Source: an uncultured Alphaproteobacteria bacterium
Lineage (GTDB): Bacteria > Pseudomonadota > Alphaproteobacteria > Sphingomonadales > Sphingomonadaceae
Reading direction: 5' to 3'
NCBI GenBank assembly: GCA_963759895.1
Contig: CAVXBC010000001.1
Span: forward strand, 23,659 to 87,658
Length of the DNA stretch: 64,000 bases
In this document: positions 15,343 to 40,371 of the stretch, piece by piece
How positions within the stretch are numbered: position 1 is the first letter of the stretch
Layout: each line of letters begins with the position of its first letter
Translations under genes and position numbers: made by a program
The notes under the pieces: generated by a model
Databases searched by the model: none
Seen by the model: the letters and a program-made list of their open reading frames with translations, nothing else
What the model was told of the DNA's origin: nothing

Positions 15343-15355
15343 GACGGACGCACCC

Positions 15356-19999: not shown

Positions 20000-20322
20000 C
20001 GCAGTTCTTTCCATTACCCAGGTTGCAGATCGCTACTGGTTTACGCTCGCGTAAGGTGCCGTACGCTGGCAGTCAAGAACCGTGCCCGCTACCACGATAA
20101 TGCCGCTGGCCCGCTTCAAACCCCCAATTTTGCGCTGTGGCACCAGAGCCACATCGACATTCCAATTCCGCCCATCACGCGCTTTACCGTTGCAGCCGGT
20201 AAACGGTTGCCGCATTTCGCCCGAGCCTTCTGAGATGAGCGACCGTGGTCGTGCACCTGCCAGAAGCAAATCTTACAGACGGATGCCGCCAAGGCGTTCG
20301 CTATCAAGGGGACGAAATTCCA

Positions 20323-23300
20323 ATGAAGAATCCCAGCATTCTCAAAGCCAGCGTCGGGCCACTCGCGCTCGCAGTTGCGCTTACAGCATCGCCCGCGTTC
20401 GCGCAGGTCGATCAGAGCACGACCGATACGGCGACGGACGCACCGATTGCGGGCGACGACCAGATCGTCGTCACCGGCACGCTGATCCGTAACCCGAACC
20501 TGGTTCTGTCGAGCCCGGTCATCGTTACCTCGGCCGATCAGATCGAACTCAAGCAGTCGAACGTCGCTGAAGAAGTGCTTCGCGAAATTCCTGGCGTGGT
20601 CGCAAACGTCGGCTCGGCCGTGAACAACGGTAACGGCGGCTCGTCCTACGTCGATCTTCGCGGCCTCGGCGCGAACCGCAACATCGTCCTGCTCGATGGC
20701 AACCGCATCGCGCCGGCCGGTCTGGCCGGTCAGGTCGACCTCAACAACATTCCGCTGGCCCTGATCAGCCGCGTCGACGCCCTGACGGGCGCGGCCGTGA
20801 CCACTTACGGCGCCGACGCCATCACCGGCGTGGTGAACTTTATCACCCGCAAGGACTTCGCCGGCATCGAAGCTTCGGCTGGCTACCAGATCACCGAAAA
20901 GGGCGACGGCGGCTATTTCCGCAGCGACGTCACCATCGGTGCCAATTTCGACGATGGCCGCGGCAACGCCGTGCTCAGCGTCGGCTATCAGGAAGCCGAC
21001 CCGATCTACCAGGGCGATCGCGACTTCTCGGTCAACCAGATCAGTTCGTTCACCGGTGGCGCCGCTGGTTCGGGCACCAGCGTTCCCTCGCGTTTCTCGG
21101 GCACCCGCCCGCTCGATCCGATCACTGGACGTCCCAGCACCGATCCGACGGTTGCGAATGGCGGCGTGCGCCAGATCAACTCCGCGGGCGCCGCGGTGCC
21201 GACTTTCGCCACCTTCAACTTCAACCCGTACAACATCTTCCAGACGCCGTTTAAGCGTTACAACATCTTCGCACAGGCCAACTATCAGGCCAGCGACGCT
21301 GTTGAGGTGTACACACGCGGCCTGTTCTCGAAGAACACGGTTTCGACCATCATCGCGCCTTCGGGCTCGTTCGGTGGTGCGGTCACGATCAACCTGAACA
21401 ACCCGTACCTGCCTGCGACGCTTCGCAATCAGTTCTGCGCGTTCAACACCGCAACCGCTGCAAGCGGCCTGTACACTCCGCGCTTCACTCAGGCGCAGTG
21501 CGATGCCGCGGCGCTCGCGACGGGACCGACCGACCCCAACTATCGTACCGTCACGGCGACGCTTAACCGTCGTTCGGTCGAAGTCGGCCCGCGTATCAGC
21601 GACTACACTTCGACGGTGTTCGATTATCGCCTCGGCCTGCGCGGTGCGATCACCGACACGATCGATTGGGACGTTTCGGGATCCTATGGCGAATCCGAAA
21701 AGATCCAGCAGATCGGTGGCTACACGCTGCAGTCGCGCTTCCGCCAGGCGGCGCTTGTCAACGGTACGCTTGCCAACCCGGTGTGCCAGGACACGTCGAA
21801 CGGCTGCGTTCCGGCCAACCTGTTCGGTCCTGCGGGCTCGATCAGCCAGGAAGCCGCCAACTTCCTGTCGCAGAAGAGCACCAGCACCATCAGCACCAGC
21901 CTCGCGCAGGCCCGTGCGGTCATCTCGGGCGACATGGGCTTCTCCTCGCCCGGCGCTGATGAGCCGATCGGTTTCGCGCTTGGTGCCGAATACCGCAACT
22001 ATGGCGCGCAACAGTCTTCGGACTTGCTCGCCAAGACCCCGGGCGAACTGGGTGGTGCCGGTGGCGCCGCTCCGGACATCGACGGCGGGTACAAGGTCTA
22101 CGAAGGCTTCGCCGAGTTGATCGTTCCGCTGATCGCCGACAAGCCGTTCTTCAAGAGCCTGACTCTCGAAGCCGGCGCCCGGTACTCGGACTACAAGATC
22201 AATGGCGCTGGTTCGAACGACACGTGGACCTACAAGGTCGGCGGTAGCTGGGAACCGATCGACAGCCTGAAGTTCCGCGGCAACTATTCACGGGCCGTCC
22301 GTGCGCCGAACATCGGCGAGTTGTTCACCCCGCAGAACACCGTTCTGACCAACCTGGGCATCGATCCGTGCGCCGGTGCTGCACCGACCACGAACGCCAA
22401 CCTGCGAGCGGTCTGCCTCGCTCAGGGCGCGCCCGCTGGAACCATCGGTTCGATCACCAACCCGACCGCTGGCCAGGCCAACATCACGACTGCCGGCAAC
22501 CTGAACCTGTCGCCCGAAACGGCGACGACCTGGACGGTCGGCGCGGTCGTGCAGCCGACGTTCCTCTCGGGGTTCTCGATGTCGATCGACTACTACAACA
22601 TCCAGGTCAAAGACGTGATCGGTGCGCCGCTCCCGGGCGATCTGGTTGCGGCCTGCTTCGGAGCCATCTCGGCTTCGAGCGCGTCGAACCCGGACTGCAC
22701 GGCCATTCGCCGCAACCCGTTCACCGGCGGGCTTGACGGTGATCCGGCAACCACCCCGGGCCTGTTCGCTCCGTTGAACAACCTGGGAACCCTGCACACG
22801 GATGGCATTGACCTTATCGTCAACTTCAACCGTGACATCGGGTTTGCCCGTCTCGGAATGAACTTCATCGGGAACTGGACGAACAGTTCGCGGTACATGG
22901 CCACTCCGACCAGTCTCGACCGCGAATGCGTTGGCTACTTCAGCGTGAACTGCTCCTTCACCGGATCGCTTCAGCCGGAGTTCCAGTTCTCGCAGCGCAC
23001 CACGCTGTCGTTCGACCAGATCGATCTTTCGCTCCTGTGGCGCTGGATTGACGGGCTGGATCACGAGCCGGCCGATATCGTCGATCAGGGTTCGTTCTAC
23101 TCGGGCACCCTGCCGGCGAACACCGGATCGCTCGCTGGCCGTCAGGTTGACTTCAACCGTATCGGTTCGACGAGCTACTTCGATCTGACCGCGCGCTGGA
23201 ACGTGAGCGACAACTTCACGTTCACGGTCGCCGTCCAGAACCTGCTCGACAACCAGCCGCCGATCGTTGGTAACACTGCCGGTGCGACCACCTTCAACAG

Positions 23301-23373
23301 CGGCAACACCTACCCGGCAACCTATGACTCGCTGGGTCGCCGTTACGCAGTGGGCGCCAAGATCAAGTTCTGA
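20323..23373 (+). CDS. TonB-dependent receptor (TBDR1)
   Basis: ORF 20245..23373(+). Start set to ATG 20323 (MKNPSILKASVGPLALAVALTASPAFAQ signal peptide). Plug domain (IVVTGTLIRNPN..., VDLRGLGANRNIVLLDGNRI), long beta-barrel, C-terminal ...YAVGAKIKF with terminal Phe. Confidence 0.9.
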   Translation: MKNPSILKASVGPLALAVALTASPAFAQVDQSTTDTATDAPIAGDDQIVVTGTLIRNPNLVLSSPVIVTSADQIELKQSNVAEEVLREIPGVVANVGSAVNNGNGGSSYVDLRGLGANRNIVLLDGNRIAPAGLAGQVDLNNIPLALISRVDALTGAAVTTYGADAITGVVNFITRKDFAGIEASAGYQITEKGDGGYFRSDVTIGANFDDGRGNAVLSVGYQEADPIYQGDRDFSVNQISSFTGGAAGSGTSVPSRFSGTRPLDPITGRPSTDPTVANGGVRQINSAGAAVPTFATFNFNPYNIFQTPFKRYNIFAQANYQASDAVEVYTRGLFSKNTVSTIIAPSGSFGGAVTINLNNPYLPATLRNQFCAFNTATAASGLYTPRFTQAQCDAAALATGPTDPNYRTVTATLNRRSVEVGPRISDYTSTVFDYRLGLRGAITDTIDWDVSGSYGESEKIQQIGGYTLQSRFRQAALVNGTLANPVCQDTSNGCVPANLFGPAGSISQEAANFLSQKSTSTISTSLAQARAVISGDMGFSSPGADEPIGFALGAEYRNYGAQQSSDLLAKTPGELGGAGGAAPDIDGGYKVYEGFAELIVPLIADKPFFKSLTLEAGARYSDYKINGAGSNDTWTYKVGGSWEPIDSLKFRGNYSRAVRAPNIGELFTPQNTVLTNLGIDPCAGAAPTTNANLRAVCLAQGAPAGTIGSITNPTAGQANITTAGNLNLSPETATTWTVGAVVQPTFLSGFSMSIDYYNIQVKDVIGAPLPGDLVAACFGAISASSASNPDCTAIRRNPFTGGLDGDPATTPGLFAPLNNLGTLHTDGIDLIVNFNRDIGFARLGMNFIGNWTNSSRYMATPTSLDRECVGYFSVNCSFTGSLQPEFQFSQRTTLSFDQIDLSLLWRWIDGLDHEPADIVDQGSFYSGTLPANTGSLAGRQVDFNRIGSTSYFDLTARWNVSDNFTFTVAVQNLLDNQPPIVGNTAGATTFNSGNTYPATYDSLGRRYAVGAKIKF

Positions 23374-23397
23374 TCAGCGCACATCGCGAACTGAATT

Positions 23398-23431
23398 GGG
23401 GGTGCGCAGCGATGCGCGCCCCCTTTTCTTT
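23398..23431 (+). terminator. Rho-independent terminator after TBDR1
   Basis: GGGGGTGCGCA-GCGA-TGCGCGCCCCC hairpin (11 bp with one G-T pair) followed by TTTTCTTT. Confidence 0.7.
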
Positions 23432-23471
23432 GCGGCCTTGACCCCACGCGCGCTCCGCGCAAGGCAGCCCT

Positions 23472-25052
23472 ATGACCGATCCTTCCGGCCGGGCCGGCAC
23501 GTCAACTGCCAGCGATACCGGTGAAAACACAGGCGACGCCCACGACCAGATGGCGCTTGCGCTCGCCCGCGCCGGTGAAGGTCGCATGGACGAGGCGGAA
23601 GCGCTGCTCGGTCGGGCGCTCGCGCTTGAGCCGCGTAATCCTGCGATCCTCGTCGGGCTGGCGGTCCTCCGCGTTCAGCAAGGGCGTTTGCGCGATGCCG
23701 TGCTTGCCTGCGATGCGGCTATCCGGATTGCGCCGGCCTATGCCGACGCGTGGCGTCAGCGGGGCGCCGTCCTGGCAGCTGGCGGCTCGATGGCCAACGC
23801 GCGCCTGAGCTTTTCCGAAGCAGTCCGCCTCGCCCCTCGGGATGCAGCAGCCCAGGCAGGGCTGGCCGCGCTCGCCGCGCGCGAGGGCGCGTTCGATGAG
23901 GCCAGGGAGCATGCGGAACGCGCGCTCGCCGCCGACCCGTGCAATGTCGTGGCCGCCTGCTCGTTGGGCCGGGCCATGCTGGCAGGGGGCATGGCTGCCG
24001 AAGTGCCCCCGTTGCTCAGCCCACATCTGGGCCGGCTGGAGGGACCGTCATCCGATCGCGTCCTGGCGCTCAACCTGCTCGCAGACGCGGCACACCGTCT
24101 GGGCAACCACGAAGAGGCGTATGCCCATTACGCTGCCTCAAAAGCAGACTTTGCCGATCTCAATGCGCTTGAAGGAGAGCGGCTGACCCACACCCAGTTC
24201 ATCGAGGCAATCCACGAAGGCCTGAGAGTGACCGACACCAGCGCGTGGCCCGCCGCATCGGCTCGTCAGCCCGCGACGGCGATCGATCCGCATGTGTTCC
24301 TGATCGGATATCCCAGATCGGGCACAACGCTGGTGGAAAACGTGCTTGCCTCGCTCGATGGCGTCGCGGCGCTGGAGGAAAGGCCGACACTGGTCGATGC
24401 CGACCTGGCCTATCTCGGCGGCGATCGCGCCGGGATAGTCGAAGCGTTGGCAAGGTTTGGGCAGGCGCCGGAAGACGAATTGCGTGCATTGCGCGAGGCC
24501 TATTGGCGCAAGGTTCACTCGGCCGGGATTGCCGCCAGTGCCAGCGCCTTCGTTGACATGGATCCGCTCAAGGGCACTCGCCTCCCCCTGATCGCCAGGC
24601 TCTTTCCCGAGTCGCGCATCATCATCATGCGCCGCGATCCGCGCGACATTGTCTGGAGTTGCTTCAAGACCAATTTCGCGATGACGAGCGGCACGTTGGA
24701 ATACACCACTCTCGAAGGGGCGGCCCGCCATTACGATGCACTGATGCGCCTTACCGAACTGGCGCTGGAAAAGCTGAAACTCGCGACCCACGTCGTCCAC
24801 TATCACGAGCTTGTGCAGCATTTCGGCTCTACCACCCGGCAAATCTGCGATTTTGCGGGAATTGAATGGAGCGATTGCGTTCATCGCTTCGATACCACTG
24901 CGCAGCGTCGCGGCGTGTCGACCGCGAGCGCGGCCCAGGTTCGACGTGGGCTGTACGACGGCACAGGACAATGGAAGCCCTATGCCAGATGGCTCGAACC
25001 GGTCATGCCGATCCTGTCGCCGTGGATCGAGAAGTTCGGTTATACTCTCTAG
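23472..25052 (+). CDS. TPR repeat-containing sulfotransferase family protein
   Basis: ORF 23472..25052(+). N-terminal half is TPR-like Ala/Leu-rich repeats. C-terminal half carries the PAPS 5'-phosphosulfate loop (IGYPRSGTTLVENVL) and a 3'-phosphate motif (IIIMRRDPRDIVWSCF). No signal peptide. Confidence 0.85.
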   Translation: MTDPSGRAGTSTASDTGENTGDAHDQMALALARAGEGRMDEAEALLGRALALEPRNPAILVGLAVLRVQQGRLRDAVLACDAAIRIAPAYADAWRQRGAVLAAGGSMANARLSFSEAVRLAPRDAAAQAGLAALAAREGAFDEAREHAERALAADPCNVVAACSLGRAMLAGGMAAEVPPLLSPHLGRLEGPSSDRVLALNLLADAAHRLGNHEEAYAHYAASKADFADLNALEGERLTHTQFIEAIHEGLRVTDTSAWPAASARQPATAIDPHVFLIGYPRSGTTLVENVLASLDGVAALEERPTLVDADLAYLGGDRAGIVEALARFGQAPEDELRALREAYWRKVHSAGIAASASAFVDMDPLKGTRLPLIARLFPESRIIIMRRDPRDIVWSCFKTNFAMTSGTLEYTTLEGAARHYDALMRLTELALEKLKLATHVVHYHELVQHFGSTTRQICDFAGIEWSDCVHRFDTTAQRRGVSTASAAQVRRGLYDGTGQWKPYARWLEPVMPILSPWIEKFGYTL

Positions 25053-26071
25053 GCAAGCAGTGCGTTGGGCGCTTCGAACGAAATTCCTGCAAGTTCAGCC
25101 ACCTGCCGCGCCCATGCCACCACCGTCTCGATCTCCTCGCCATAGGCGGCGCGCGCTTGCGCGTAATCGGCCCGGCGCGTCTCGGGGGAATAGGCAACCC
25201 CGGACTTGGAGTGCCGGGTGAATGCCGGTCCGGCCGCGATCGTGGCGGATGCCCGGGTGCTGATATCGATGCCGAAATGCCTTGAGACGGCCGCGATCGC
25301 CTCCGTCGGATCGGCGATCATCCGGTCCGCATCCAGCGAACGAAGACGGTTCCGGCCGAGCGTGGCAGCAAGCCGGGCGAAGTATGCGTGCTGGGCAAGC
25401 CATCCGATCGCGGCGATCTGTAGATCGCTCTGGCGAAAATAGTCTTCTGCACTGAACGGAAAATCGACGAACTTTTCGCGCAAGTATCCTTCCAGAAGTT
25501 CGCGCACCCACAGGCGGCAGGGTAGCCCCTTGCGCGCGACCGAGATCAGGAAGCTTTCCAGCGGCGCGAAAAGGAAGATCGCCGGCGCATCGCGGTTGAG
25601 CGCCAAAAGCAGTTCAGCCAGCGGGTTTACCACGTTGGATGGCTTCACCACCACCGCGGTTTCGTCACCATACGGGCGTCCCAGCAAACGAATGGACCCA
25701 TCGGCCAACCGCGCCACCGCGCGTGCATCGGCTCCCCGGCGCCGAAAACCGACGATATCGTTCAGCAGGACCGGTTCGCTGAGCGAGGATGCGACACCGC
25801 CGATATCAAGGGCTTGCGACAGCATGGTCGAACCGCAGAAAGCAGAATGAAACAACCAGCCCACTCGTGGCGCGCGGAACTGGTTGAGGATCTCATCGGC
25901 ACGGACATCGTACGGCCCAGGACGATCGCCCAGGTTGGCATCGGTCAGAAAGGGCACGCTCCGGCGGTCAGCGCGGGGAACCCGGATAAATCGAAAGGCG
26001 TCTTTGCCTTCGACATATCGATGCGCGAGCCAATCCGGGTCGAGGGGTGAGAATTGAACGCTTCCGGCCAT
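25049..26071 (-). CDS. Uncharacterised protein, paralogue P1 (sulfotransferase-like CGST loop)
   Basis: ORF 25049..26071(-), ATG at 26071. Aligns along its length with the product of 28763..29743 (GW-x-FH-x-A-x-CGST-x-L-x-x-ALD, L-x-EP, VVK, DAP-x-IFL, ...SK). The FH-x-A-x-CGST loop resembles a sulfotransferase P-loop, so function is an inference only. No signal peptide. Confidence 0.7.
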   Translation of the reverse strand: MAGSVQFSPLDPDWLAHRYVEGKDAFRFIRVPRADRRSVPFLTDANLGDRPGPYDVRADEILNQFRAPRVGWLFHSAFCGSTMLSQALDIGGVASSLSEPVLLNDIVGFRRRGADARAVARLADGSIRLLGRPYGDETAVVVKPSNVVNPLAELLLALNRDAPAIFLFAPLESFLISVARKGLPCRLWVRELLEGYLREKFVDFPFSAEDYFRQSDLQIAAIGWLAQHAYFARLAATLGRNRLRSLDADRMIADPTEAIAAVSRHFGIDISTRASATIAAGPAFTRHSKSGVAYSPETRRADYAQARAAYGEEIETVVAWARQVAELAGISFEAPNALLA

Positions 26072-26151
26072 CGTTGCGACTATGGCAGCTTCGCCAATCG
26101 CAGCAACTCGCCACTTGCCGGTTTCCGCACCTCTGCGTAGTCCACCAGGTC

Positions 26152-27315
26152 ATGAACGCGGCCGCTACTGCCCAGCAAGCCAACGCGAGCGGCCTTGCCG
26201 CATTACGCGCGGGAGACCACGCCACCGCAATTCGGGAGTTCAGTCGCGCGACCGCTGCCGATCCGCAGGCCGGTAGCTTGTGGCGAAATCTCGCCCACGC
26301 CTATCGCCTGGCCGGGGACGACGAGGGAGAACGGCGGGCACTTGAAAGTGCGTTGGCCCTCGACCGGCTGGACTTTCCAGCCCAGCTGCGCCGCGCGCAG
26401 CTTTTGCAGCGGCTGGGCGAAGACGTGACGGCGTTGCAGGCATGGGACGGCGTGTTTCAACTGGCCCAGAAGCTGGAGAGCCCCTCACCGGGATTGGAGC
26501 CAGAACTGGAAGCGGGGCGCGCATACTGCGCGGCCCTGCGCGATCGGGTCGCGGAGGCCGCCCAGCGGGCGTTGGCCGACCAGACCGACCGTACCGCAGC
26601 AGAAGATCGGCGCCTCAACGCTTTCGTGGATCTTGCCGTCGGAAAACGCCGGATCTTTCATAATCAGTGCAGCGGCGCGCATTATCCCTTTCTTCCGGAA
26701 GACGAGTTTTTCGATCGGGAGCTGTTCCCGTCATTTGCGGCGATCGAACAGGCTGCGCCCGCGATAAAGGCTGAGTTCCATGATCTGATCGGGACGAGTG
26801 ACGAATTGATCAGGCCCTACGTCCGCATGGACGAAGGGACACCGCAAAATGAATGGTCATCGCTCGACGGCTCGCTCGATTGGGGTGCATGCTTCCTGTG
26901 GGAATACGGCGTCCCGAACCAGCCGGTCCTCGACCGCTGTCCGCAAACCGCCGAGCTGATCGAGAGCCTGCCGCTCGCGCGAATTCCCGGGCGTGCGCCA
27001 AACGTGTTCTTCTCGCTGCTGAAGGCAGGTAGCCGGATCCCCCCGCACACCGGCGTGACGAACACCCGCGCCATCGTCCATCTGGGAATCGAGATACCAC
27101 CGGGCTGCGGCTTTCGAGTAGGCAATGAAACGCGGGAATGGGTCGAAGGAAAGGCCTTTGCGTTCGATGATACCATCGAGCACGAAGCCTGGAACGAGGG
27201 CCGCGAGCCCCGCGCAGTGCTGATCCTCGATTACTGGAACCCGCATCTCACCCACGCCGAGCGCACGGCAATAGCGCGTTATTTCGTCGAGGCTGACCGC
27301 GCTTTAAAGCGCTAA
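26152..27315 (+). CDS. TPR repeat-containing aspartyl/asparaginyl beta-hydroxylase family protein (Fe(II)/2OG cupin)
   Basis: ORF 26047..27315(+). Start set to ATG 26152 (MNAAATAQQANASGLAALRAGDH). N-terminal TPR-like repeats. C-terminal AspH/LpxO-type region (FFSLLKAGSRIPPHTGVTNTRAIVHLGIEIP...FAFDDTIEHEAWN). Confidence 0.8.
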   Translation: MNAAATAQQANASGLAALRAGDHATAIREFSRATAADPQAGSLWRNLAHAYRLAGDDEGERRALESALALDRLDFPAQLRRAQLLQRLGEDVTALQAWDGVFQLAQKLESPSPGLEPELEAGRAYCAALRDRVAEAAQRALADQTDRTAAEDRRLNAFVDLAVGKRRIFHNQCSGAHYPFLPEDEFFDRELFPSFAAIEQAAPAIKAEFHDLIGTSDELIRPYVRMDEGTPQNEWSSLDGSLDWGACFLWEYGVPNQPVLDRCPQTAELIESLPLARIPGRAPNVFFSLLKAGSRIPPHTGVTNTRAIVHLGIEIPPGCGFRVGNETREWVEGKAFAFDDTIEHEAWNEGREPRAVLILDYWNPHLTHAERTAIARYFVEADRALKR

Positions 27316-27398
27316 CTCGGTTAACTGGGCGAGCGTTAAATTGACAAATGATCCCGCGAAGGGCATCATCGCTAGCTGTTCTCACGGGACGAATAGCT

Positions 27399-27740
27399 AT
27401 GTTGAGACCGATCGTGCTCGGCTGCGTTTTGTTCGTGTCTGTTTCCGCCGCGGCGCAGGACGCCTCGGCACCGGATACCCTGACGCTGATGTCGTCGAAG
27501 GAAATTGCTGCGCACAACGCCAGCCTCGACCCTTCCGACAAGACCTTCATCAAGTGCGTTCGCAGCGAACGGCCCGGATCGCTGGTGAAAAAGCGGTACT
27601 GCCGGACCAATGCCGATTGGGACCGGAGAGCCGAAATCGCGAACCGGGACGCGCGCGATATCGTCGACAGGATTTTGACCAGCGGCTCGACACATGGCGA
27701 GGAGCCGGCCGGATCCCTGGTGCCCGCGATTCCCAATTGA
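27399..27740 (+). CDS. Small secreted two-Cys protein, tandem paralogue 1
   Basis: ATG 27399 within ORF 27348..27740 gives MLRPIVLGCVLFVSVSAAAQD (Sec signal). The mature part shares the core MS-x-x-EI-x-A-x-NA...I-x-C-x-RS-x-x-x-GS-x-V-x-x-x-Y-(x)-CRTNA-x-W...RDI-x-D-x-x-TS with the next gene. Confidence 0.65.
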   Translation: MLRPIVLGCVLFVSVSAAAQDASAPDTLTLMSSKEIAAHNASLDPSDKTFIKCVRSERPGSLVKKRYCRTNADWDRRAEIANRDARDIVDRILTSGSTHGEEPAGSLVPAIPN

Positions 27741-27768
27741 AGACCAATTTTCTGAAATGGAGCCTGTA

Positions 27769-28080
27769 ATGATTTTCTTCGCCAACGCTCTTTTGGCGAT
27801 CATCGGTTCTGCGACAGCTGCCAGCGCAGTGGCCGATATCCCCGAGCCCAACCCCAAGGCCATGTCACAGGCCGAGATCCGTGCGTTCAACGCCACTGTC
27901 GACAAGGGGCACAAGTACTACATTCGGTGCAAGCGCAGCGCTCCCACCGGGTCGTTTGTTGCCCGCGAATACAGTTGCCGCACGAATGCCCAGTGGGCCG
28001 CGGCGGATACTCGCGGGAATCAGGAATCGCGCGACATCTTGGACGAGATGACCAGCAAGGCCACGAACACCAGCAACTGA
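27769..28080 (+). CDS. Small secreted two-Cys protein, tandem paralogue 2
   Basis: ATG 27769 (GGAG 6 nt upstream) within ORF 27694..28080 gives MIFFANALLAIIGSATAASAVA (signal-like). Contains YYIRCKRSAPTGSFVAREYSCRTNAQW...SRDILDEMTS, homologous to the preceding gene. ATG 27757 is an alternative start. Confidence 0.65.
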   Translation: MIFFANALLAIIGSATAASAVADIPEPNPKAMSQAEIRAFNATVDKGHKYYIRCKRSAPTGSFVAREYSCRTNAQWAAADTRGNQESRDILDEMTSKATNTSN

Positions 28081-28109
28081 GCGGCGGGCCCGCGACCGCC
28101 GGCTCGCGT

Positions 28110-28634
28110 TCAGTTGGCGAGCCGGACGACGCGGACGCCCGGCTGCTTGTCCACATTGGCCATGAAGCTGCCCATGGCCGCGCGCTTGATGTGAATCGGA
28201 TTGCCGACCTTGGGATAGACGTTGCGTCCCTCGGTCTGCTTCCAGCGCGCGCCGTCCTCCAGCACGAAGATGGGCATGCCGTCGCTGGCTGTCCGGAGGC
28301 CGGTGATCGTGCTGTCGATGGACGTCACCTCTTCGCTGTCGCCGCCGCTGAACAGCTTGAGGCTGGGAAGTCCCAGGCCGAACACTCCCCGCCGTGTCTC
28401 GCGCATGGTCTCCCGGTCGACCACCAGGACCTGGCGATCCTTACTGGCGGAAGCCAGTTCGGCGACCGAACGATCGAAACACGCCAGGCGCGCCTGCGGT
28501 TCGGTTACCGCCTCGCAATCGAGGACCGATTGTAGCACTTGCGGGACAGGAGGTGGCGACCGGTCCGAATCCGCCCAGGCCATCGTGGACCCAGCCGCAA
28601 AGACCCCGGTCAGGGCCATGGTCAACAATCGCAT
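28110..28634 (-). CDS. Hypothetical secreted protein
   Basis: ORF 28110..28697(-). Start set to ATG 28634 (MRLLTMALTGVFAAGSTMAWA signal peptide). Contains a C-x9-RLACFD motif, then a beta-rich C-terminal domain. No family recognised. Confidence 0.6.
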   Translation of the reverse strand: MRLLTMALTGVFAAGSTMAWADSDRSPPPVPQVLQSVLDCEAVTEPQARLACFDRSVAELASASKDRQVLVVDRETMRETRRGVFGLGLPSLKLFSGGDSEEVTSIDSTITGLRTASDGMPIFVLEDGARWKQTEGRNVYPKVGNPIHIKRAAMGSFMANVDKQPGVRVVRLAN

Positions 28635-28762
28635 CTGATTTCCTGTCGTTCGAGTTTTTGTGCGAGGCAAAATGCCTTCCTGCCCGCGACATGGCAAGCT
28701 GCGTTCCCGTCACTCGGCAGAAGCGGGCGTGCGGTTGAAGGCGAAATTCCCGCAATTCTCGC

Positions 28763-29743: not shown

Positions 29744-29792
29744 CGCAAAGGATATAGCGACCCAAGTCGGCGGCAGCTATGGGCGACGGGCG

Positions 29793-30767
29793 ATGACTTC
29801 GATCTCCTCTCCCATCATCTCCGCTCCGACCGCCGACTGCCCGCATGCCACGATCCTCGACCATTCCGGAAACCGGCTATCGACGCTGAACCCTGCAGAC
29901 GTACTTGAACCATACCGCGAACATGGAGCTGTGCTCGTGCGGGGGTACGACTATGACCTGGTGGAATTTCGCGCCTTCTGCCGCCGAATCTGCCCTACCG
30001 CGGTGATCAACGAATCGCCCGGCCGCGTGGCGGTCGGCACGACCAATGAGATTCAAAGCGTCAATCTGGGCGAGGATGCGTTCCCGCTCCACCCGGAGTT
30101 GTCCCGCGAACCGTGGAAGCCGGACACCGCCTTCTTTGCCTGCCTATCCCCACCTTCACAGGCGGGGGAAACCACCATCTGCGACGGCATCGCCCTGGCG
30201 GCCAATTTGCCCGATGCTGTAAAAAAGGGCTTCTCCGGGCGGCGTCTGCTGCATTTGATGCCGACTTGGCCCGGCCTGTTCGAATTCTGGTTGGGTACCG
30301 CCAATCCGACAGCCGCGCTGCTGGCCGCCCCCCCGCCCACTTGTCCCTATCGCTTCCTGACCACCCCCGGCGGTCAGGTGGCACGAAGCTTTTCCCGACC
30401 GGCATTGCACCGCCCCATGTTTGCGGACGGACCTGCATTCGGCAATTTTCTCCTGTTTGCCCGTTTCCATGCGGGCAGGCAGGATTTTCCCTTGCTGGAC
30501 GATTTCACGCAGGTGCCGGACGACTGGGCCGAGGCAGCGCGGGCGACCGGGGAGGACCTGACTTACTCGCACCGTTGGCAACAGGGCGACATCCTGATGC
30601 TCGACAATACCCGCTTCATGCATGGCCGCAGGTCCGTGGCGCACGCCCACGAGCGGAAGATCGTGACCTATTTCGGTTATCTGGCAGGCGCCCCGCGCAG
30701 CTCTGAAGAACCGGCCAAACCGATCTGGCGCGAGCGGGATTTCAGGCCTCCGTCGGTCGTCACCTGA
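29793..30767 (+). CDS. TauD/TfdA family Fe(II)/2-oxoglutarate dioxygenase
   Basis: ORF 29733..30767(+). FPLHPELS (H-x-E iron ligands) and WQQGDILMLDNTRFMHGRR are the TauD/TfdA signatures. Start set to ATG 29793 (MTSISSPII) to avoid a divergent overlap with P2; GTG 29733 and ATG 29736 are alternatives. Confidence 0.8.
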   Translation: MTSISSPIISAPTADCPHATILDHSGNRLSTLNPADVLEPYREHGAVLVRGYDYDLVEFRAFCRRICPTAVINESPGRVAVGTTNEIQSVNLGEDAFPLHPELSREPWKPDTAFFACLSPPSQAGETTICDGIALAANLPDAVKKGFSGRRLLHLMPTWPGLFEFWLGTANPTAALLAAPPPTCPYRFLTTPGGQVARSFSRPALHRPMFADGPAFGNFLLFARFHAGRQDFPLLDDFTQVPDDWAEAARATGEDLTYSHRWQQGDILMLDNTRFMHGRRSVAHAHERKIVTYFGYLAGAPRSSEEPAKPIWRERDFRPPSVVT

Positions 30768-31083
30768 CAATCGACCGCGGCACACCACTCCGCAGTTCCC
30801 GGCCCAGGCGGCGTCCAGCGGTGCGAACTTTGACGCAAGCGATCCGAGGACCCATTTCTCGCCGAAACCGTCACTTTTGTATCGCCGTTCGCGCCTTCCG
30901 TGTTGCAAACGAGCAACTATCCAAAGTTAGGTGACGTCTCTAACGGATTATGTCTTTTCTCGTATGACTTAGGTTGCCATGCGAGGGGCAGCGCGCGTCG
31001 TGCATCCACGTGGTGCGAGCGCATTATGGGCTATGAATAGCAACTGGCGGGTCGCGCCAAATTATCTGGGGATTTGGATAGAC

Positions 31084-34000
31084 ATGAGCAAACTGAGCAA
31101 TTCGCGCCGGAAAAGCGGCATGCTGGCAAGCGCCGGCCTCGTGGCGCTGTCCCTGGCCGCTTTGTCCGCTCCCGCGTACGCACAGGATACCGATGATACC
31201 GACCCGGTTGGCGAAGGCGCCGCCGCGACGGTTTCCGACCAGGATACCGATGCCGCCGGCAAGCCGGTGGAAGGCAATGCCATCGTCGTTACCGGTTCGC
31301 GCATCAAGCGCGCCAACTACGATACGATCGAGCCTTCGGTGGTTATCGATTCCGAAAAGATCGAGGCGCGGGGCTTCGAGACGCTTGGCCAGGCGCTCAA
31401 CGAACAGCCTTCCTTTGGCGTCCCCGGGGCATCGCCGGTCGGCGGCCAGTCCGGCTTCGGCCAGGGCCAGAGCTTCGTCAACTTCCTCGGCCTCGGCTCG
31501 CAGCGCACGCTGACTCTGGTCAATTCCAAGCGCTTCGTATCGTCCAACACCGCCTCGATCTTCGGCCCGACCGGCGCCGGCAGCCAGGTCGACCTCAACG
31601 TCATCCCGACCAAACTGGTCGAGCGGATCGAGACGATCGCAGTCGGCGGCGCGCCGATCTACGGTGCGGATGCGATTTCGGGGACCATCAACGTCATCCT
31701 GAAGTCGAACTACGAAGGTCTCGAGATCGACGGGCAGTACGGCATCTCGTCGCGCGGCGACGCGGCCAACTATCGCTTCCGCGGCCTGGCCGGGACCAAC
31801 TTTGCCGGTGGGCGCGGCAACGTGACCATCGCTGGCGAATACAACCGCGGCGAAGGCCTGACCTACACCGATCGCAACCTGCTGAGCCCGGGCCTGTTCT
31901 TCCGCAACGCGAGCGACCCCAACTCGGGCTTCCTGCAGGAACTGTACAGCGATCGCCGGATCCCTTCGATCGCGAACACCGGCATCCCGATCGTCGGGCT
32001 GGCGGATTACGGCCTCGACTTCAACTTCCCCGACAACCAAGGCCCGCTTTTCGGCCTTCCCGCGGGCTTCAACGGCGCGGTGTCCGATGCGAACGGCAAC
32101 CAGCTGAAGTTCGACACCAACGGAAACCTGATCCCGATCGATTTCGGCCGTTACGCCGGCAAGCCGGGCTACCTTCGGCATCGATTTCGCCGGAGGAAAC
32201 GGCTTCAGCCTCAACGATGTCAGCAACCTGCTGAGCCCGAGCGAACGCTACAGCGCGATCGCCATCGGATCGTACGAGCTGACGGATGCCGTCCGCTTCT
32301 CGATGGAGGCGTGGTATTCGCGCTCCAAGGGCACCAACCTGACCGATCAGCCGGTGTACAACAGCGCGCTGTTCGATGCCGCTGGCACGCCTGACGGCAA
32401 CATCATCGTCAGCATCGACAATCCGTTCCTGACCCCGGCCGCACGCGCGTCCATCGTCGATGCGATCAACAACAATCCGTTCTCCGACCAGAACTTCAAC
32501 GGCGTGAACCAGGATTACTTCTATCTTGGCCGGGCCAATACCGATCTGCAGTCGGGTTTCTCGACCGGTACCGTGGAAGTGATGCGCTTCGTCGCCGCGC
32601 TCGACGGCGACTATCAGTTGTTCGGCCGGAACTGGAACTGGGAAGCGTTCGCCAATTACGGCCGTTCGGAAACGAACAGCCGCAGCCGCGAGCTGATCCA
32701 GCAGAATTTCGCCAACGCGGTGGACGCCGTGCTCGATCCCAGCGGCAACATCGTTTGCCGCCCCGGCGTAACCAGCGCGGCCATTCCTTCGATCAATTCC
32801 GCTTGCACTCCGATCAACCTGTTCGGCACCGGCCGCAACAGCCAAGCGGCGCTGGACTATGTAACTGCCATCGCCACGCCGCGTTCGCTCAACGAACTGA
32901 AGGACTTCGTCGTATCGACCGGCGGCGAAGTCTTCGCTCTGCCGGGCGGCGCGTTCTCGGTTTCGGTGGGTTACGAACACCGCGAAGAATCCCAGGATTT
33001 CGATCCGGGCGATTTCTTCCGGGGGGAACTGCAGGCGGACGGAAGCTACGCTTCATACGGCCGTTCGGTGCCGATCCAGCCGGTTTTCGGCAAGTTCAAC
33101 ACCGACGAGTTCTCGGGTGAGTTCCTGGCCGAGATCATCTCGCCCTCGAACAACGCGTTCCTGGACCTGCTCGAGGTCAAGGGTGCGGCGCGCTACGTCG
33201 ACAACTCGATCGCCGGTGGCGACTGGACCTGGACCCTGGGTGGCCGCGTTGGCGTCTTCGGCGTGAGCTTCCGCGGAAACTACACGAAGTCGATCCGCGC
33301 ACCTGCGATCACCGAGGCGTTCAACCCGTCGAGCCAGTTCTTCGGTTTCGCGACCGATCCGTGCGACTCGACAAACATCGGCAACGGAGCCAACGCCGCC
33401 AACCGAGCAGCCAACTGCGCGGCTGCGGGCATCACGCAGCCGTTCAGCTCGCTGTCCGCCAGCCGCTCGTTCAAGCAGGCGGTGGCCGGCAACCCCGACC
33501 TTCTCAACGAGAAGGCGGATAGCTGGACCGTCGGTGCGGTCATCCAACCCAGCTTCATCCCGCGTCTGCGCCTCAGCGTCGATTACGTGGACATCAAGCT
33601 GCGTGACGTGATCTCCGAGCTCACTGCGAGCACGATCGTGGCCAACTGCTATGATTCGGCGGATTTCCCGAACAACCAGTTCTGCGACCGCGTGTCGCGC
33701 GACGGAGCCAACCAGCTCGACTTCATCGAGACCGGTTACTTCAACTCGGCCGAACTGCGTTACAAGGGCATCCTCGGCGCACTCGACTACCGCGTCCCGA
33801 ACGTGTTCGGCGGGCCCGGCGCGCTCAACTTCTCGGCCAGTTACCAGTACCTGGACACGCTGAGCTCGCGCGCCGACAACAACCCGGGCACGGCTGAGAG
33901 CCGCAACGACGATTCGGTCGGCTACTCGAAGCACTCGGCAGTCGCCACGGTGTCTTACAACGAACCGGACTACGGCGTGTTCGTGCAAGCCAACTACACC

Positions 34001-34252
34001 GGCGCGACGCACATCGATTCGCAGGTCGCCGACAACTACTATCCCAATGGCCTGAACGATCTGAAGGCGATCACGTTCATCAACATGGGGGCGAACTTCA
34101 ACGTCAACGACAAGTTCGAATTCCGGCTCGTCGTCGACAACGTGTTCGACAAGAAGCCCCCTTATCCGTTCCCGGCTTCGGGTGGTGTGGTGACATACTT
34201 CCCGGGCGTGCTCGGAACTTTCTTCCGCGCAGGCGCGACCGTTAAGTTCTGA
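31084..34252 (+). pseudogene. TonB-dependent receptor (TBDR2) with one frameshift (pseudogene or sequencing error)
   Basis: ORF 30979..32394 supplies the signal peptide (MSKLSNSRRKSGMLASAGLVALSLAALSAPAYAQ from ATG 31084) and plug. Sense is lost after ...IDFGRYAGKPGY. It resumes in the frame of ORF 32303..34252 (hand translation FGIDFAGGNGFSLNDVSNLLSPSERYSAIAIGSYELTDAVRFSMEAWYSR...), ending ...AGATVKF. The switch is at about 32164-32173. Confidence 0.75.
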
Positions 34253-34277
34253 TCCGACCTTCAAAGGAACTGAAAAA

Positions 34278-34307
34278 GGGTCCCGGGCAACCGGGGCCCT
34301 TTTTTTG
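34278..34307 (+). terminator. Rho-independent terminator after TBDR2
   Basis: GGGTCCCGG-GCAA-CCGGGGCCC hairpin followed by TTTTTTTG. Confidence 0.75.
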
Positions 34308-34586
34308 TTCGGGCCATGGTATGATCGCCGCGACAGTCGCATCGGTGCCCGCTTGGGCATGGGCGCGATTTTCACTGGATTTTTCGCGCTCTATCGAAAG
34401 ATAGGTGTGGCCGTGCCGCCACTTCTCTTAAGCGTCTGCCATAACGATCCAAATTTACGTTGCGAGAGCCCGACGTGCTCGGCATTCGAGAAGTTCGCAC
34501 AAAATCGGGCGCCAAACTGCTCGAACGATGGGCGCCGCATTCAAACTCTTGCCGGCTCGCGCCGGACTTTTGGGGGACTCAACTCA

Positions 34587-37500
34587 ATGAATATGCTTTC
34601 CGCCTTGCGCGGCAAAAGTGGTATGCTGGCCAGCGCCGGCGTTGCCGCGCTTTCGCTCGCCGCCTTTGCTACCCCGGCCTACGCGCAGGACAGCGCCGCC
34701 GCCAATCCGCCTGATTGCCCCGACCAGAACTCGGACGGCGTGTGCGATCCGGATACCACCATCTCCAGTGCAGACGGCAGCACCTCGAGCAGCGGCGCCA
34801 TCGTCGTCACCGGTTCGCGCATTCGCCGCGACGAGTACTCGACGATCGAACCCATCACAGTCGTGACGGCTCAGGAAATTACCCAGTCGGGCTTCAACAG
34901 CGCCACCGATGCGCTGCAGAGCACCGAAGTCACCCAGGGCTCGGGCCAGATCAACAACTATTACGGCGGTTACGTCACCGACGGCGGCACCGGTGCCAAC
35001 ACGCTCGGCCTGCGCGGCCTCGGGCCCGCACGCACGCTCATCCTGCTCAACGGACGCCGGATCGCACCCGCAGGGACGCGCGGTTCGGTTCTCGCAGCCG
35101 ACCTCAACGTCCTGCCGACCGCGATCATCGAGCGCATTGAAATCCTCAAGGCCGGCGCGTCGTCGATCTATGGTTCGGACGCGATTGCGGGCGTCGTCAA
35201 CATCATCACCGACAGCAAGCTGCGCGGCCTGACGATCGACGCCCAAGTCAACGTCCCCGAGATCGGCGCCGGCGTCGACAAGCGTGTTTCGGCCAGCTTC
35301 GGCTTCGGCGATGACCGCTTCGACCTCATCGGCTCGGTCGAGTACCGCAAGCGGAATGCTATCCGCCTGCGCGACGTGGACTTCGCGAAGTGCCCGGTTG
35401 GTGGGTACACCACCAGCGAAGGCGCGCCGTTCGGCTCGGACGACGTCAACGGCTTCGATGGCACGCCCTGCTTCACGCTCGACAACGGGGGCGTGACCAT
35501 CAACACCCTCGGCGTCCCGACCCGCTCGGGTATCGGCCGTACCTCGGGCACGGTTGCCAACTTCAACCGCTTCGTTCCTGCCGGCGCCACCCAGGGTGGT
35601 GCAACTCCCGGGTTCCTGGGTGTCGGCACGTACGATCGCGACACCTTCGATCCCGCGAGCCAGCTCGAGGAAGTGGTGACCCCGGTTGAAACCTACACGG
35701 GCTTCCTGTCCGGCAGCTACAAGCTCGATTCGCTCGGCAATGCCGAGATCTACGGCGAAGTGCTGGCCTCGCGCCGCAAGTCGTCGTCGATCCTCTATCG
35801 CCAGCTCTCGCTGGACTATCTCCAGGGCAGCCCGCTGGTCCCGGCGATCTTCCGCAACGGCGCGTTCCTCGCACCCACCAATACGTCAAGCGGGAAGAAC
35901 ATTGCTGCCCGTGCATTCATCGGCTTCGGCAACACCGATTCCAGCCAGGACGTCGATTACGTCCGCGCCGGCGGCGGTATCCGGGGTGACTTCTTCTTCC
36001 CCGGATGGCGCTATGACGCGTACGCCGGCAAGTCGTGGACTGACGGCACTTACCAGATCGAATCCTTCTTGGTTGACCGCCTGGCCACTTCGCTGAACGT
36101 CGTTCAGAACCAAGACGGTTCGTTCAGCTGCGCCGCCCAGGCTTCGATCGCCAACTGCGTCCCCGCGCCGGTGCTCAACGCTGACACCATCGGTGGCCGA
36201 CTGCCGCAGGCATTCCGCGACTACATTCTGCAGAACACCATCGGCACCACCAAATTCCGCGAGACCACGTTCTCGGTCGGGTTCGACGGTCCGCTGTTCG
36301 CCCTCCCGGGCGGCGACGTCCAGCTGGCGTTGGGTGCGGAATATCGCAAGCAGAGCATCAACGACACGCCCGACATCAATTCGCAGACGGGCAACCTGTT
36401 CGGCCTGACCGCCGGTGTCCCGACGCGTGGTTCGGACAACGTGAAGGAAGTGTTCGGCGAAGTCTTCCTGCCGCTGCTTTCGGACCGTCCGTTCTTCGAA
36501 AACGTCAACATCGACGCGTCGGTTCGCTACACCGACTATGCTTCGTATGGCAGCGACACCACTTACAAGGTGGCGGGCGAATGGGAGTTCTTCCGCGGCT
36601 TCGGTATCCGCGGCAGCTACGGCACTTCGTATCGTGCCCCGGCCCTGTCGGAGCAGTTCCTCGGAGCGACCAGCGGGTTTGGCGCAAGCAGCGGCGACCC
36701 TTGCGACAAGGACAACTTCCCGCGTGCCAACGGTGCCCCCAACCCGGGTGCGTACTCGCCGGCACAGCAGCAGCGGGCAGCCAACTGCGCAGCGATCGGG
36801 ATCAATGTCGCAACGTTCGATCAGAACAGCGGCATCACGATCTTCAACCGTGGTGGCGCAGAAACCGGCCTGTCGGCGGAAACGTCGCGCAACTGGTCGG
36901 CGGGCGTCGTTCTCCAGCCGCGCATCTCGGCAACCACCACGCTCAGCCTCGCGCTCGATTATTTCGACATCAAGGTCAGCAACGGCGTGTCGAGCCTGAG
37001 CAGCGCGACGATCCTGTCGCGTTGCTACGGCGCGGTGGACTTCAGCCCGACGGGTGGTTTCTGCCGCTTCGTGCAGCGTGACAGCAACCAGATCCTGACC
37101 GTCACCAGCGGTTACGTGAACCTGTCGGAAGACATCGTGAAGGGTTACGAATTCAACGGCCGCTTTGCGACCGATGTCTTCGGCGGCCGGTTCACGCTCA
37201 ACGCCAACGTCACGAAGTACACTGAACAGTCGGATCGCCTCTTCCCCGAAGAGTTCCGGCGTGATGCCAACGGCGTGCTGACGGCTCCGGAATGGGTCGG
37301 TTCGTTCGACGCCAACTACCGGATGGACAACGTAACCTTCCGCTACGGCCTGAGCTGGATCGACGGAAGCAAGGGCACCTACGACTTCCTGGCGTTCAAC
37401 CGGACGACCGGCATGCCCAATGCGGCCACTGCCCAGTCCTATCGTGACGCCACGATCCTCGAGGTGGACGACTACTTCCTCCACACCGCTTCGGTTCAGT

Positions 37501-37670
37501 TCGATGTGGCTGACAGGTTCGAGTTCACCATCGGTGTCCGCAACCTGTTCGACAAGCAGCCGCCGACGATCACCAACTTCGGGTTCACCACTACGGCGAA
37601 CGCGCCGGTGTACTCGGGTTACGACTTTGTGGGCCGTACGTTCTTCGCGAACACGACCTTCAAGTTCTAA
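34587..37670 (+). CDS. TonB-dependent receptor (TBDR3), paralogue of TBDR2
   Basis: ORF 34305..37670(+). Start set to ATG 34587 (MNMLSALRGKSGMLASAGVAALSLAAFATPAYAQ, nearly the same signal peptide as TBDR2). Plug (IVVTGSRIRRDEY..., LGLRGLGPARTLILLNGRRI), barrel, terminal ...NTTFKF. Confidence 0.9.
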   Translation: MNMLSALRGKSGMLASAGVAALSLAAFATPAYAQDSAAANPPDCPDQNSDGVCDPDTTISSADGSTSSSGAIVVTGSRIRRDEYSTIEPITVVTAQEITQSGFNSATDALQSTEVTQGSGQINNYYGGYVTDGGTGANTLGLRGLGPARTLILLNGRRIAPAGTRGSVLAADLNVLPTAIIERIEILKAGASSIYGSDAIAGVVNIITDSKLRGLTIDAQVNVPEIGAGVDKRVSASFGFGDDRFDLIGSVEYRKRNAIRLRDVDFAKCPVGGYTTSEGAPFGSDDVNGFDGTPCFTLDNGGVTINTLGVPTRSGIGRTSGTVANFNRFVPAGATQGGATPGFLGVGTYDRDTFDPASQLEEVVTPVETYTGFLSGSYKLDSLGNAEIYGEVLASRRKSSSILYRQLSLDYLQGSPLVPAIFRNGAFLAPTNTSSGKNIAARAFIGFGNTDSSQDVDYVRAGGGIRGDFFFPGWRYDAYAGKSWTDGTYQIESFLVDRLATSLNVVQNQDGSFSCAAQASIANCVPAPVLNADTIGGRLPQAFRDYILQNTIGTTKFRETTFSVGFDGPLFALPGGDVQLALGAEYRKQSINDTPDINSQTGNLFGLTAGVPTRGSDNVKEVFGEVFLPLLSDRPFFENVNIDASVRYTDYASYGSDTTYKVAGEWEFFRGFGIRGSYGTSYRAPALSEQFLGATSGFGASSGDPCDKDNFPRANGAPNPGAYSPAQQQRAANCAAIGINVATFDQNSGITIFNRGGAETGLSAETSRNWSAGVVLQPRISATTTLSLALDYFDIKVSNGVSSLSSATILSRCYGAVDFSPTGGFCRFVQRDSNQILTVTSGYVNLSEDIVKGYEFNGRFATDVFGGRFTLNANVTKYTEQSDRLFPEEFRRDANGVLTAPEWVGSFDANYRMDNVTFRYGLSWIDGSKGTYDFLAFNRTTGMPNAATAQSYRDATILEVDDYFLHTASVQFDVADRFEFTIGVRNLFDKQPPTITNFGFTTTANAPVYSGYDFVGRTFFANTTFKF

Positions 37671-37694
37671 TCGAAGCCTTAAGGCAAAACGAAA

Positions 37695-37723
37695 GGGCCC
37701 CGGGAAACCGGGGCCCTTTTTTT
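37695..37723. terminator. Rho-independent terminator after TBDR3, probably bidirectional (also downstream of clpB)
   Basis: GGGCCCCGG-GAAA-CCGGGGCCC followed by TTTTTTT on the plus strand. On the minus strand the same hairpin is followed by TTTCGTTTTG. It lies between the convergent TBDR3 and clpB genes. Confidence 0.75.

Positions 37724-37791: not shown

Positions 37792-40371
<2,580 letters not shown>

Follow-up and report, generated by a model that had tools for sequence, protein, structure and literature searches.

Protein hydroxylation by AspH-type enzymes and sulfation by enzymes of the tyrosylprotein sulfotransferase (TPST) type are regarded as chemistry of the eukaryotic secretory pathway, and RaxST is, to our knowledge, the one bacterial example of TPST-type sulfation that has been studied well. 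In Xanthomonas, RaxST is reported to sulfate the RaxX precursor before its export (PMC4646787, PMC6637879). Operons that combine a beta-hydroxylase with a sulfotransferase have been predicted to hydroxylate and then O-sulfate co-encoded secreted proteins (Iyer, Abhiman, de Souza and Aravind 2010, PMC2938197). The fusion of TPR repeats to a sulfotransferase was listed as a novel architecture in a 2005 survey, with Xanthomonas XAC3051 and Mesorhizobium Mlr4028 as its examples. A study of Pontixanthobacter genomes reports a lasso-peptide gene set in which an aspartyl beta-hydroxylase stands next to two sulfotransferases (PMC10040529); by analogy, the same enzyme pair may tailor ribosomal peptides in these related Erythrobacteraceae. 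Here we describe a gene cassette that carries both enzyme types next to a TonB-dependent receptor (TBDR) and a family of small exported two-Cys proteins, which we call sm. The cassette lies in a stretch of 64,000 nucleotides (the window) from contig CAVXBC010000001.1 of an uncultured Sphingomonadaceae bacterium (assembly GCA_963759895.1).

Conservation of the cassette across genomes

All coordinates are positions in the window unless a locus is named, and the region denotes the part between the thiolase gene and clpB. The cassette genes are arranged as follows.

20323-23373, plus strand: TBDR1, the cassette's cognate TonB-dependent receptor, 1016 aa (Plug 5e-19, barrel 1e-33)
23472-25052, plus strand: TPR-ST, a TPR-sulfotransferase of 526 aa (Sulfotransfer_3 2e-29, several TPR families)
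25049-26071, minus strand: P1, a divergent protein of 340 aa with a predicted sulfotransferase fold, transcribed divergently from TPR-AspH
26152-27315, plus strand (open reading frame, ORF, open from 26047): TPR-AspH, a hydroxylase of the Fe(II)/2-oxoglutarate (2OG) type (Asp_Arg_Hydrox 6e-41)
27399-27740, plus strand (alternative ATG at 27348): sm1, a small exported two-Cys protein with a hydrophobic N-terminus
27769-28080, plus strand: sm2, a small exported two-Cys protein of 103 aa with a hydrophobic N-terminus and the invariants of the family
28110-28634, minus strand: sec174, an exported protein of 174 aa with a signal-peptide-like N-terminus ending in AWA

Patterns derived from an alignment of P1 were run against one genome per species. 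They yielded 102 relatives, from which 80 loci were retained, all of them from Sphingomonadales or from unclassified alphaproteobacterial or Pseudomonadota metagenome-assembled genomes (MAGs), and most from Novosphingobium. The window proteins were then mapped onto the 80 loci by tblastn, and each component was counted in the loci with enough flank. Almost everywhere the same order recurred: TBDR1, TPR-ST, P1 divergent from TPR-AspH, one to four sm genes in the direction of TPR-AspH, and sec174. TPR-AspH was found in 65 of 67 loci and sec174 in 61 of 67, and TBDR1 orthologues (49-73% identity) in 59 of 62. For sm the count was 62 of 67, to which the motif C..TGSL..C.T...W, used to find further copies, added four. 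TPR-ST was present in 46 of 62 loci, and its absence from the other 16 indicates that it is optional.

Most loci were flanked by L28, an M23 peptidase, XseA and PurD, while ClpB or thiolase flanked the cassette in the window and in L003. These housekeeping flanks, together with a chromosomal position conserved across the order, mean that the cassette is not a mobile island. Judged from gene neighbourhoods, the cassette is an old, vertically inherited chromosomal locus in Sphingomonadales. The gene set also recurred in rearranged form in loci anchored on P2 or sm, down to 36% P1 identity, and its persistence through these rearrangements points to one conserved system. The original prediction had described a multi-enzyme tailoring module genetically tied to TonB transport and had named co-occurrence in related genomes as a check. 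The recurrence of the gene set in 80 P1-anchored loci supports this view. The region is, however, not one island but consists of two modules, which are described below.

The small two-Cys proteins and sec174

The two tandem small proteins are paralogues (44% identity, E 2e-16), and both have the two-Cys core. The invariants of the family are M, I, N, I, C, G, C, T and W. An AlphaFold2 (AF2) model of sm2, with a predicted local distance difference test (pLDDT) score of 81.5, places both Cys on the strands of a beta-hairpin that follows a short helix and precedes a long C-terminal helix. Compared with the PDB, this predicted fold gave no match with E below 0.3. The family is very small: its profile matched 422 of 5.8e9 sequences and, among 1.84e9 representatives, 308 clusters, nearly all of them 85-135 residues long and none with a Pfam domain. 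The distant members carry typical Sec signal peptides, as judged by eye.

The number of sm copies per locus was one in 38 loci, two in 15, three in 6 and four in 3. All sm relatives with a retrieved neighbourhood adjoined at least one cassette gene, and on the neighbourhoods retrieved so far the family is private to the cassette. The genes for AspH and sm were always adjacent and co-directional, with an order that flips between variants (AspH before sm, or the variant form sm' before AspH). No conserved Asp-Tyr site was present in sm. The sm residues were also compared with regard to the loss of TPR-ST. Many columns differed, and the signal was phylogenetic, since 10 of the 13 copies from ST-negative loci came from one clade.

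For sec174 we obtained no match to a protein family or to a structure in the PDB. A homologue stays beside the receptor in the rearranged loci L082, L084, L086 and L094 as well as in Sphingomonas-type loci, and sec174 is likely a receptor partner.

The two TPR enzymes

TPR-ST scored 103.7 bits against PF13469 (cut-off 27). It carries YPRSGTT, which fits the pattern P-K/R-S-G-T/S-T of the 5'-phosphosulfate-binding motif (5'-PSB), and RRDPRDIVWS, which fits the pattern R-x7-S of the 3'-phosphate-binding motif (3'-PB). R282, S283, G284, T286, R388 and S396 were identical in 43 of 43 orthologues, across which the motifs PRSG.T and RDPRD....S were invariant or nearly so. By sequence, the nearest solved relative of the sulfotransferase domain was human TPST2 (2e-10). 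TPR-AspH scored 140 bits against PF05118 (cut-off 22.6), and the nearest solved relative of its oxygenase domain was human AspH (4e-28). The alignment of the two covers PHTG and EHE, and both Fe-binding His and the 2OG-binding Arg match. H300, H345, R355 and S289 were identical in all 50 of 50 orthologues. By these alignments, the predicted catalytic residues of AspH and TPR-ST are intact, and the enzymes to which both appear closest among solved structures are protein-modifying ones.

TPR-AspH did not reach the OlsC equivalog (82.8 bits against a cut-off of 450, at 2e-23 its best NCBIfam name), nor the LpxO equivalog (40.2 bits against 500). On inspection, no signal peptide was seen in the products of the TPR-ST, TPR-AspH, P1, P2 and TauD genes.

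The P1/P2 family and the TauD-type oxygenase

To the right of sec174, the region continues with the following genes.

28763-29743, minus strand: P2, a paralogue of P1, transcribed divergently from the TauD gene
29793-30767, plus strand (ORF open from 29733): an Fe(II)/2OG oxygenase of the TauD/TfdA family (PF02668 2e-27)
31084-34252, plus strand: TBDR2, with Plug and barrel in different frames and a frameshift near 32170-32185
34587-37670, plus strand: TBDR3 (Plug 2e-20, barrel 4e-28; start placed at MNMLSALRGK)

P1 and P2 are 32% identical (E 5e-22) and have the motif FH.A.CGST in common. Neither had a match in Pfam or NCBIfam, and their relatives, at least 1279 for P1 and at least 1420 for P2 (90% clustering), were all unnamed or hypothetical. 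The AF2 model of P1 had a pLDDT of 91, and its top 29 Foldseek matches in the PDB were all sulfotransferases. The best of them were TPSTs at E ~1e-5 (down to 9e-6), with TM scores of only 0.4-0.5. On the evidence of this model, P1 and P2 form a very divergent family with a predicted sulfotransferase fold. A profile-profile link from P1/P2 to the canonical sulfotransferase domain was considered and rejected; the similarity was not significant, and only a C-terminal strand-helix motif aligns. At least three protein families of the region, namely P1/P2, sm and the 174-aa protein, are without Pfam or NCBIfam coverage.

The TauD protein scored 97.4 bits against PF02668 (cut-off 27), and HPE and FMHGRR fit the H-x-D/E...H triad of the family. 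It matched no equivalog model and gave only weak C-terminal matches to unrelated hydroxylases; the nearest solved chain was DfmD (7e-9, a partial match).

Overall, the ORF positions and the matches to profile hidden Markov models confirmed the nine genes that had been read from the letters, with their domains and places. They comprise the TPR fusions to a sulfotransferase (YPRSGTT, RRDPRD) and to an AspH-family hydroxylase, the TauD-type dioxygenase, the two mutually homologous proteins with a sulfotransferase-like loop, the tandem small proteins with a common two-Cys core, and the 174-aa secreted protein. It had also been noted that the region holds no gene for synthesis of 3'-phosphoadenosine 5'-phosphosulfate (PAPS), no exporter, no protease and no regulator; we found this to be true of the region and of the rest of the window as well.

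Two modules and their rearranged variants

Module 1 consists of TBDR1, an optional TPR-ST, P1, TPR-AspH, one to four sm proteins and sec174. Module 2 consists of P2 head-to-head with the TauD-type oxygenase, beside further TonB-dependent receptors. The two are merged in Allosphingosinicella-type genomes and form separate loci in others. In 7 of 7 contexts, relatives of P2 were head-to-head with a TauD gene, and in L088 and L089 this pair adjoins a receptor. Loci L089 and L016 belong to the same MAG, where one contig carries ClpB, TauD, P2 and a receptor and a second contig carries the core cassette. This split shows that the two modules can separate.

In the Allosphingosinicella-type loci (L082-L084), P2 replaces P1. 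Their left part runs from ClpB through a periplasmic TonB_C protein and the divergent TauD and P2 genes to TPR-AspH, into which three to four sm' genes lead; the remainder comprises TPR-ST, a receptor gene divergent from a sec174 homologue, XseA and PurD. The small proteins of these loci belong to a divergent sm branch in which C-x5-[TI]GSL-x5-6-C-[RK]-T-x3-W is retained. In L082 (8355-8921), as in L083 and L084, an sm-like core, KKICRRRVKTGSLANYERLCATQADW, forms the C-terminus of a 188-aa protein that has a signal peptide and a TonB_C domain. Through this natural fusion of TonB_C and sm, the sm core is linked to the TonB/receptor machinery.

Another variant, L086, holds TauD head-to-head with P2, sec174, a receptor, TPR-ST, sm and a P1-like gene. 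This AspH-less variant is adjoined, at 17890-20633 of L086, by an extracytoplasmic function (ECF) sigma factor, a FecR-type anti-sigma factor and a further TonB receptor, and the sigma/anti-sigma pair may be a regulatory link. More distant variants are listed here.

L090/L091: a TBDR1-like gene, an sm gene in the same direction and a P1-like gene (36% identity) on the opposite strand
L092: TPR-AspH followed by sm in the same direction
L094: M23, a sec174-like gene, a receptor, a P1-like gene, TPR-AspH, sm and ClpB
L096 (45% GC contig): a TBDR1-like gene only, then a lipoprotein with two sm cores

In L090 and L096, the sm gene comes directly after the TBDR1-like gene. The gene in L096 (540-1247) encodes a lipoprotein-like protein of 235 aa with its two sm cores, and the GC content of this contig indicates that the sm family extends past the high-GC sphingomonads sampled.

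Receptors and remaining features of the window

None of the receptors reached an NCBIfam subfamily cut-off, and only generic sub-threshold matches were obtained. The receptors announced by the original prediction, TBDR1 and the TBDR2/TBDR3 pair, lie where they had been placed and have Plug and barrel domains, but TBDR2 is not intact. Its Plug is in ORF 30979-32394 (31084-~32175) and its barrel in ORF 32132-34252 (~32180-34252), in another frame. The protein reads ...AGKPGY in one frame and continues with FGIDFAGGNGFSL in the next. TBDR2 is either a pseudogene or the product of a one-base assembly error. TBDR3 is 38-40% identical to the N-terminal part of TBDR2.

Many Novosphingobium loci (among them L024, L031, L034, L035, L037, L042, L058, L062 and L067) have a conserved 5' leader ~100 nt upstream of the TBDR1 orthologue, of the form CATCTATCC...GATCAGGAATCC-hairpin-GGATCTACAGAGGGAC-GTG. 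The hairpin precedes the ribosome-binding site, and its pairing is kept through two-sided changes at 5 pairs; its support from RNAalifold is weak (-1.7 kcal/mol). No such element is apparent ahead of TBDR1 in the window (20015-20322).

The boundaries of the region and the terminator-like hairpins are the following.

18827-20014, minus strand: thiolase, the left boundary of the region
23398-23423, plus strand: a terminator-like hairpin after TBDR1 (11-bp stem with 9 GC pairs, then a T run)
37691-37720, both strands: a bidirectional terminator-like hairpin in the gap between TBDR3 and ClpB, at the right edge of the region (13-bp stem)
37792-40962, minus strand: ClpB, the right-hand neighbour of the region

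Terminator-like sites overall showed no enrichment relative to shuffled sequence. Promoter-like hexamers are present at 27341-27369, by sm1. A search of the region against Rfam gave no match and no riboswitch. The GC content at third codon positions was 0.70-0.74 for the enzyme and small-protein genes and 0.78 for sec174, compared with ~0.80-0.85 for the receptors and the flanking genes. The genes for enzymes and small proteins (23472-30767) have this lower value despite their inheritance by descent.

The remainder of the window consists of housekeeping genes and a Tad pilus locus. This Tad/Flp locus (9560-16363) encodes RcpC/CpaB, the CpaC secretin, CpaD, a weak ParA-like CpaE and two TadB/C proteins, and the gene for the CpaF/TadA ATPase was not seen between CpaE and TadB. 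An ORF of 1043 aa at 55733-58864 on the minus strand has a high GC content at third codon positions and a sub-threshold Plug match (1e-3), and may encode a fourth, very divergent TonB-receptor-like protein.

Proposed mechanism and rival explanations

How the conserved genes work together can be proposed only tentatively. The account that we favour, though with a little less confidence than an even call would demand, is that the cytoplasmic TPR enzymes modify the sm pre-proteins before Sec export, and that the sm proteins then work with the receptor. The TPR domains would dock the unfolded pre-proteins. TPR-AspH, and the TauD-type oxygenase where it is present, would hydroxylate Asp/Asn or another side chain. 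Sulfate would then be added by TPR-ST, by the P-family partner of each oxygenase, or by both, still before Sec export. In the periplasm, the modified mini-protein would fold around one disulfide and act with TBDR1 and sec174, either as a ligand-capturing or carrier protein or as a receptor-binding partner. The sm proteins are the leading substrate candidate because they are private to the cassette and co-directional with AspH. The enzymes would meet them only before export, since the enzymes showed no signal peptides on inspection, and PAPS, 2OG and Fe(II) reside in the cytoplasm. Formylglycine formation in sulfatases is a precedent for the cytoplasmic modification of Sec substrates.

A bolder version of this account would make sm a ribosomal, Sec-exported mini-protein that is beta-hydroxylated, sulfated or both by the TPR-guided AspH- and TPST-like enzymes of the cytoplasm and serves as the dedicated ligand, or ligand carrier, of its own TBDR, as a protein counterpart of a siderophore or hemophore, with P1 and P2 as a new class of group transferases that work with 2OG oxygenases. 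We consider this version unlikely as a whole. If true, it would provide the first bacterial protein substrate of an AspH-type hydroxylase and a new coupling of post-translational modification to TonB-dependent transport. A widespread cassette with both enzyme types is in any case a testable system, with shifts of +16 and +80 Da expected on a protein of ~75 residues, and it could reveal recognition targets of the large orphan TonB receptors in sphingomonads.

Several observations weigh against modification of sm. No modification site could be identified in sm. The consensus of AspH substrates of the epidermal growth factor (EGF) type, C-x-[DN]-x4-[FY]-x-C, does not occur in these proteins; the nearest match is C-[RKM]-T-N-x-x-W, the Asn of which is not invariant. 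The invariant Asn of the Novosphingobium-type proteins (EIRAxN) was considered as a hydroxylation site and dropped, as it is missing in the Sphingomonas- and Allosphingosinicella-type proteins. The Tyr before the first Cys was likewise rejected as an obligate sulfation site: in ST-positive loci this position is Tyr in 70 sm copies and Phe in 22, and some of these loci carry Phe only. With regard to the enzymes, AspH or TPR-ST is absent from some loci, AspH being the missing one in L086, and in L087 the TauD-P2 pair stands alone with no neighbouring sm or receptor genes. PAPS-synthesis genes are absent nearby. The P1 loop FHSAFCGST, aligned by eye, has Phe and Cys where K/R-S is expected, so that the canonical Lys/Arg of the 5'-PSB is missing, and hhalign gave a probability of 0.2% between P1/P2 and the sulfotransferase domain of the cassette. 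For these two reasons, sulfotransfer by P1/P2 is only putative, and they may not be sulfotransferases. The encounter of enzymes and sm is confined to the stage before export, for which chaperone or leader-type recognition is only putative, and signal peptides and cytoplasmic location were assigned by eye rather than by a predictor.

The enzymes might instead hydroxylate and then sulfate a small molecule or an envelope lipid, with sm, sec174 and TBDR1 binding, exporting or re-importing the product rather than serving as substrates. The AspH family includes OlsC and LpxO, with OlsC the best NCBIfam name for TPR-AspH (2e-23); TauD-family enzymes act mostly on small molecules, and a receptor beside biosynthetic enzymes is the classic layout of siderophore and methanobactin loci. 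The missing modification site in sm and the occurrence of the TauD-P2 pair away from sm also fit. Nevertheless, the scores of TPR-AspH against OlsC and LpxO are far under the cut-offs (83 against 450 and 40 against 500 bits), and both TPR enzymes are nearest to protein-modifying enzymes and carry TPR domains, the usual modules for docking proteins or peptides. No variant contains a non-ribosomal peptide synthetase (NRPS), polyketide synthase, lipid synthase, exporter or inner-membrane importer. On balance, we think it rather improbable that the product is a small molecule or lipid. We hold it to be distinctly less probable still that the enzymes modify another export of the cassette, such as TBDR1, sec174 or the TonB-like protein, and that sm proteins are accessories of the receptor. 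Within the cassette, TBDR1 and sec174 match sm in conservation, and the TonB_C protein of L082 ends in an sm-like core. However, AspH appears to be transcriptionally coupled to sm and to neither TBDR1, after which a terminator-like hairpin lies, nor sec174, which is encoded on the opposite strand. That sm is amplified in tandem also suits a substrate or product.

Module 2, and perhaps the whole region, could also serve the scavenging of organosulfur or other compounds, in which the receptors would import the compound, the TauD-type enzyme would cleave sulfonate or sulfate esters, and the sulfotransferase-fold proteins would bind sulfated ligands. The TauD family includes taurine and sulfonate dioxygenases, and alkylsulfatases beside TonB receptors such as atsK of P. 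putida. In keeping with this, the TauD-P2 pair lies beside a receptor in L088 and L089, and the window holds three receptors. Yet no TauD or AtsK equivalog was matched, an inner-membrane transporter and a regulator are absent, and PAPS-type sulfotransferases are anabolic. Scavenging would also leave the private sm family and AspH unexplained, and we give it little credence. Finally, the genes might be unrelated neighbours inherited together by chance. Their conserved position among housekeeping genes (ClpB, XseA, PurD) means that vertical synteny alone could hold them together, but the set persists where gene order, strand and flanks differ and where P1 has diverged to 36% identity, and every sm relative with a retrieved neighbourhood adjoins cassette genes. 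Chance inheritance is already disfavoured and seems to us very improbable.

Comparison with known systems

The genes could not be assigned to any characterised pathway when they were first read, and this was borne out. No enzyme reached the equivalog cut-off of a characterised pathway, and we found no description of the cassette in the literature. TPR-AspH belongs to the same Pfam family as LpxO and OlsC (PF05118). LpxO and OlsC have no TPR domain, unlike the AspH of the window, and their loci differ from the cassette, which has no lipid-synthesis genes in its neighbourhood. With human AspH, TPR-AspH shares the order of TPR and oxygenase, the two-His iron site, the 2OG-binding Arg/Ser, and a candidate substrate that is a small disulfide-bonded secreted domain. 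The human enzyme, however, acts in the lumen of the endoplasmic reticulum on disulfide-bonded EGF domains with the consensus given above, whereas the bacterial enzyme is without a signal peptide.

As to receptor-linked systems, no NRPS or NRPS-independent siderophore synthetase, glycoside hydrolase, inner-membrane transporter or regulator lies between thiolase and ClpB, which sets the cassette apart from siderophore and carbohydrate-utilisation loci. In certain neighbourhoods of alpha- and gamma-proteobacteria, a TonB receptor accompanies SapC, JmjC/cupin proteins and a tryptophan halogenase. There too, Sphingomonas- and Xanthomonas-type bacteria have uncharacterised tailoring enzymes, 2OG oxygenases among them, in linkage with a TBDR. 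The cassette has no halogenase, SapC or JmjC, and those neighbourhoods are without a small exported protein family.

The RaxX-RaxST-RaxAB system of Xanthomonas, with its tyrosine-sulfated ribosomal product, resembles the cassette in that a TPST-like cytoplasmic sulfotransferase is reported to act on the precursor before export, the sulfotransferase domain of the cassette being nearest to TPSTs. The leader peptide of RaxX is cleaved and the peptide is exported by a peptidase-containing ATP-binding cassette (ABC) transporter, while the cassette variants are without exporter or protease. Neither the region nor the variant loci contain the peptidase/ABC exporter that marks ribosomally synthesized and post-translationally modified peptides of the RaxX/RaxST type. 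The candidate substrates of the cassette are folded proteins of ~75 aa with Sec signal peptides and without a conserved Asp-Tyr site, and a hydroxylase and a receptor are added.

The operons predicted in PMC2938197 likewise place an AspH-family hydroxylase and a P-loop sulfotransferase beside small secreted non-enzymatic proteins, and their functions are, as here, predictions. Those operons include fusions of phytanoyl-CoA hydroxylase to a methyltransferase, PAPS synthetases, and proteins of the collagen-like or phage tail-collar type; the cassette instead has the TPR fusions, P1/P2, the private two-Cys mini-protein family and the TonB-dependent receptor. By analogy, the cassette appears to work most like these predicted hydroxylase and sulfotransferase operons and like RaxX/RaxST, while it is a member of neither.

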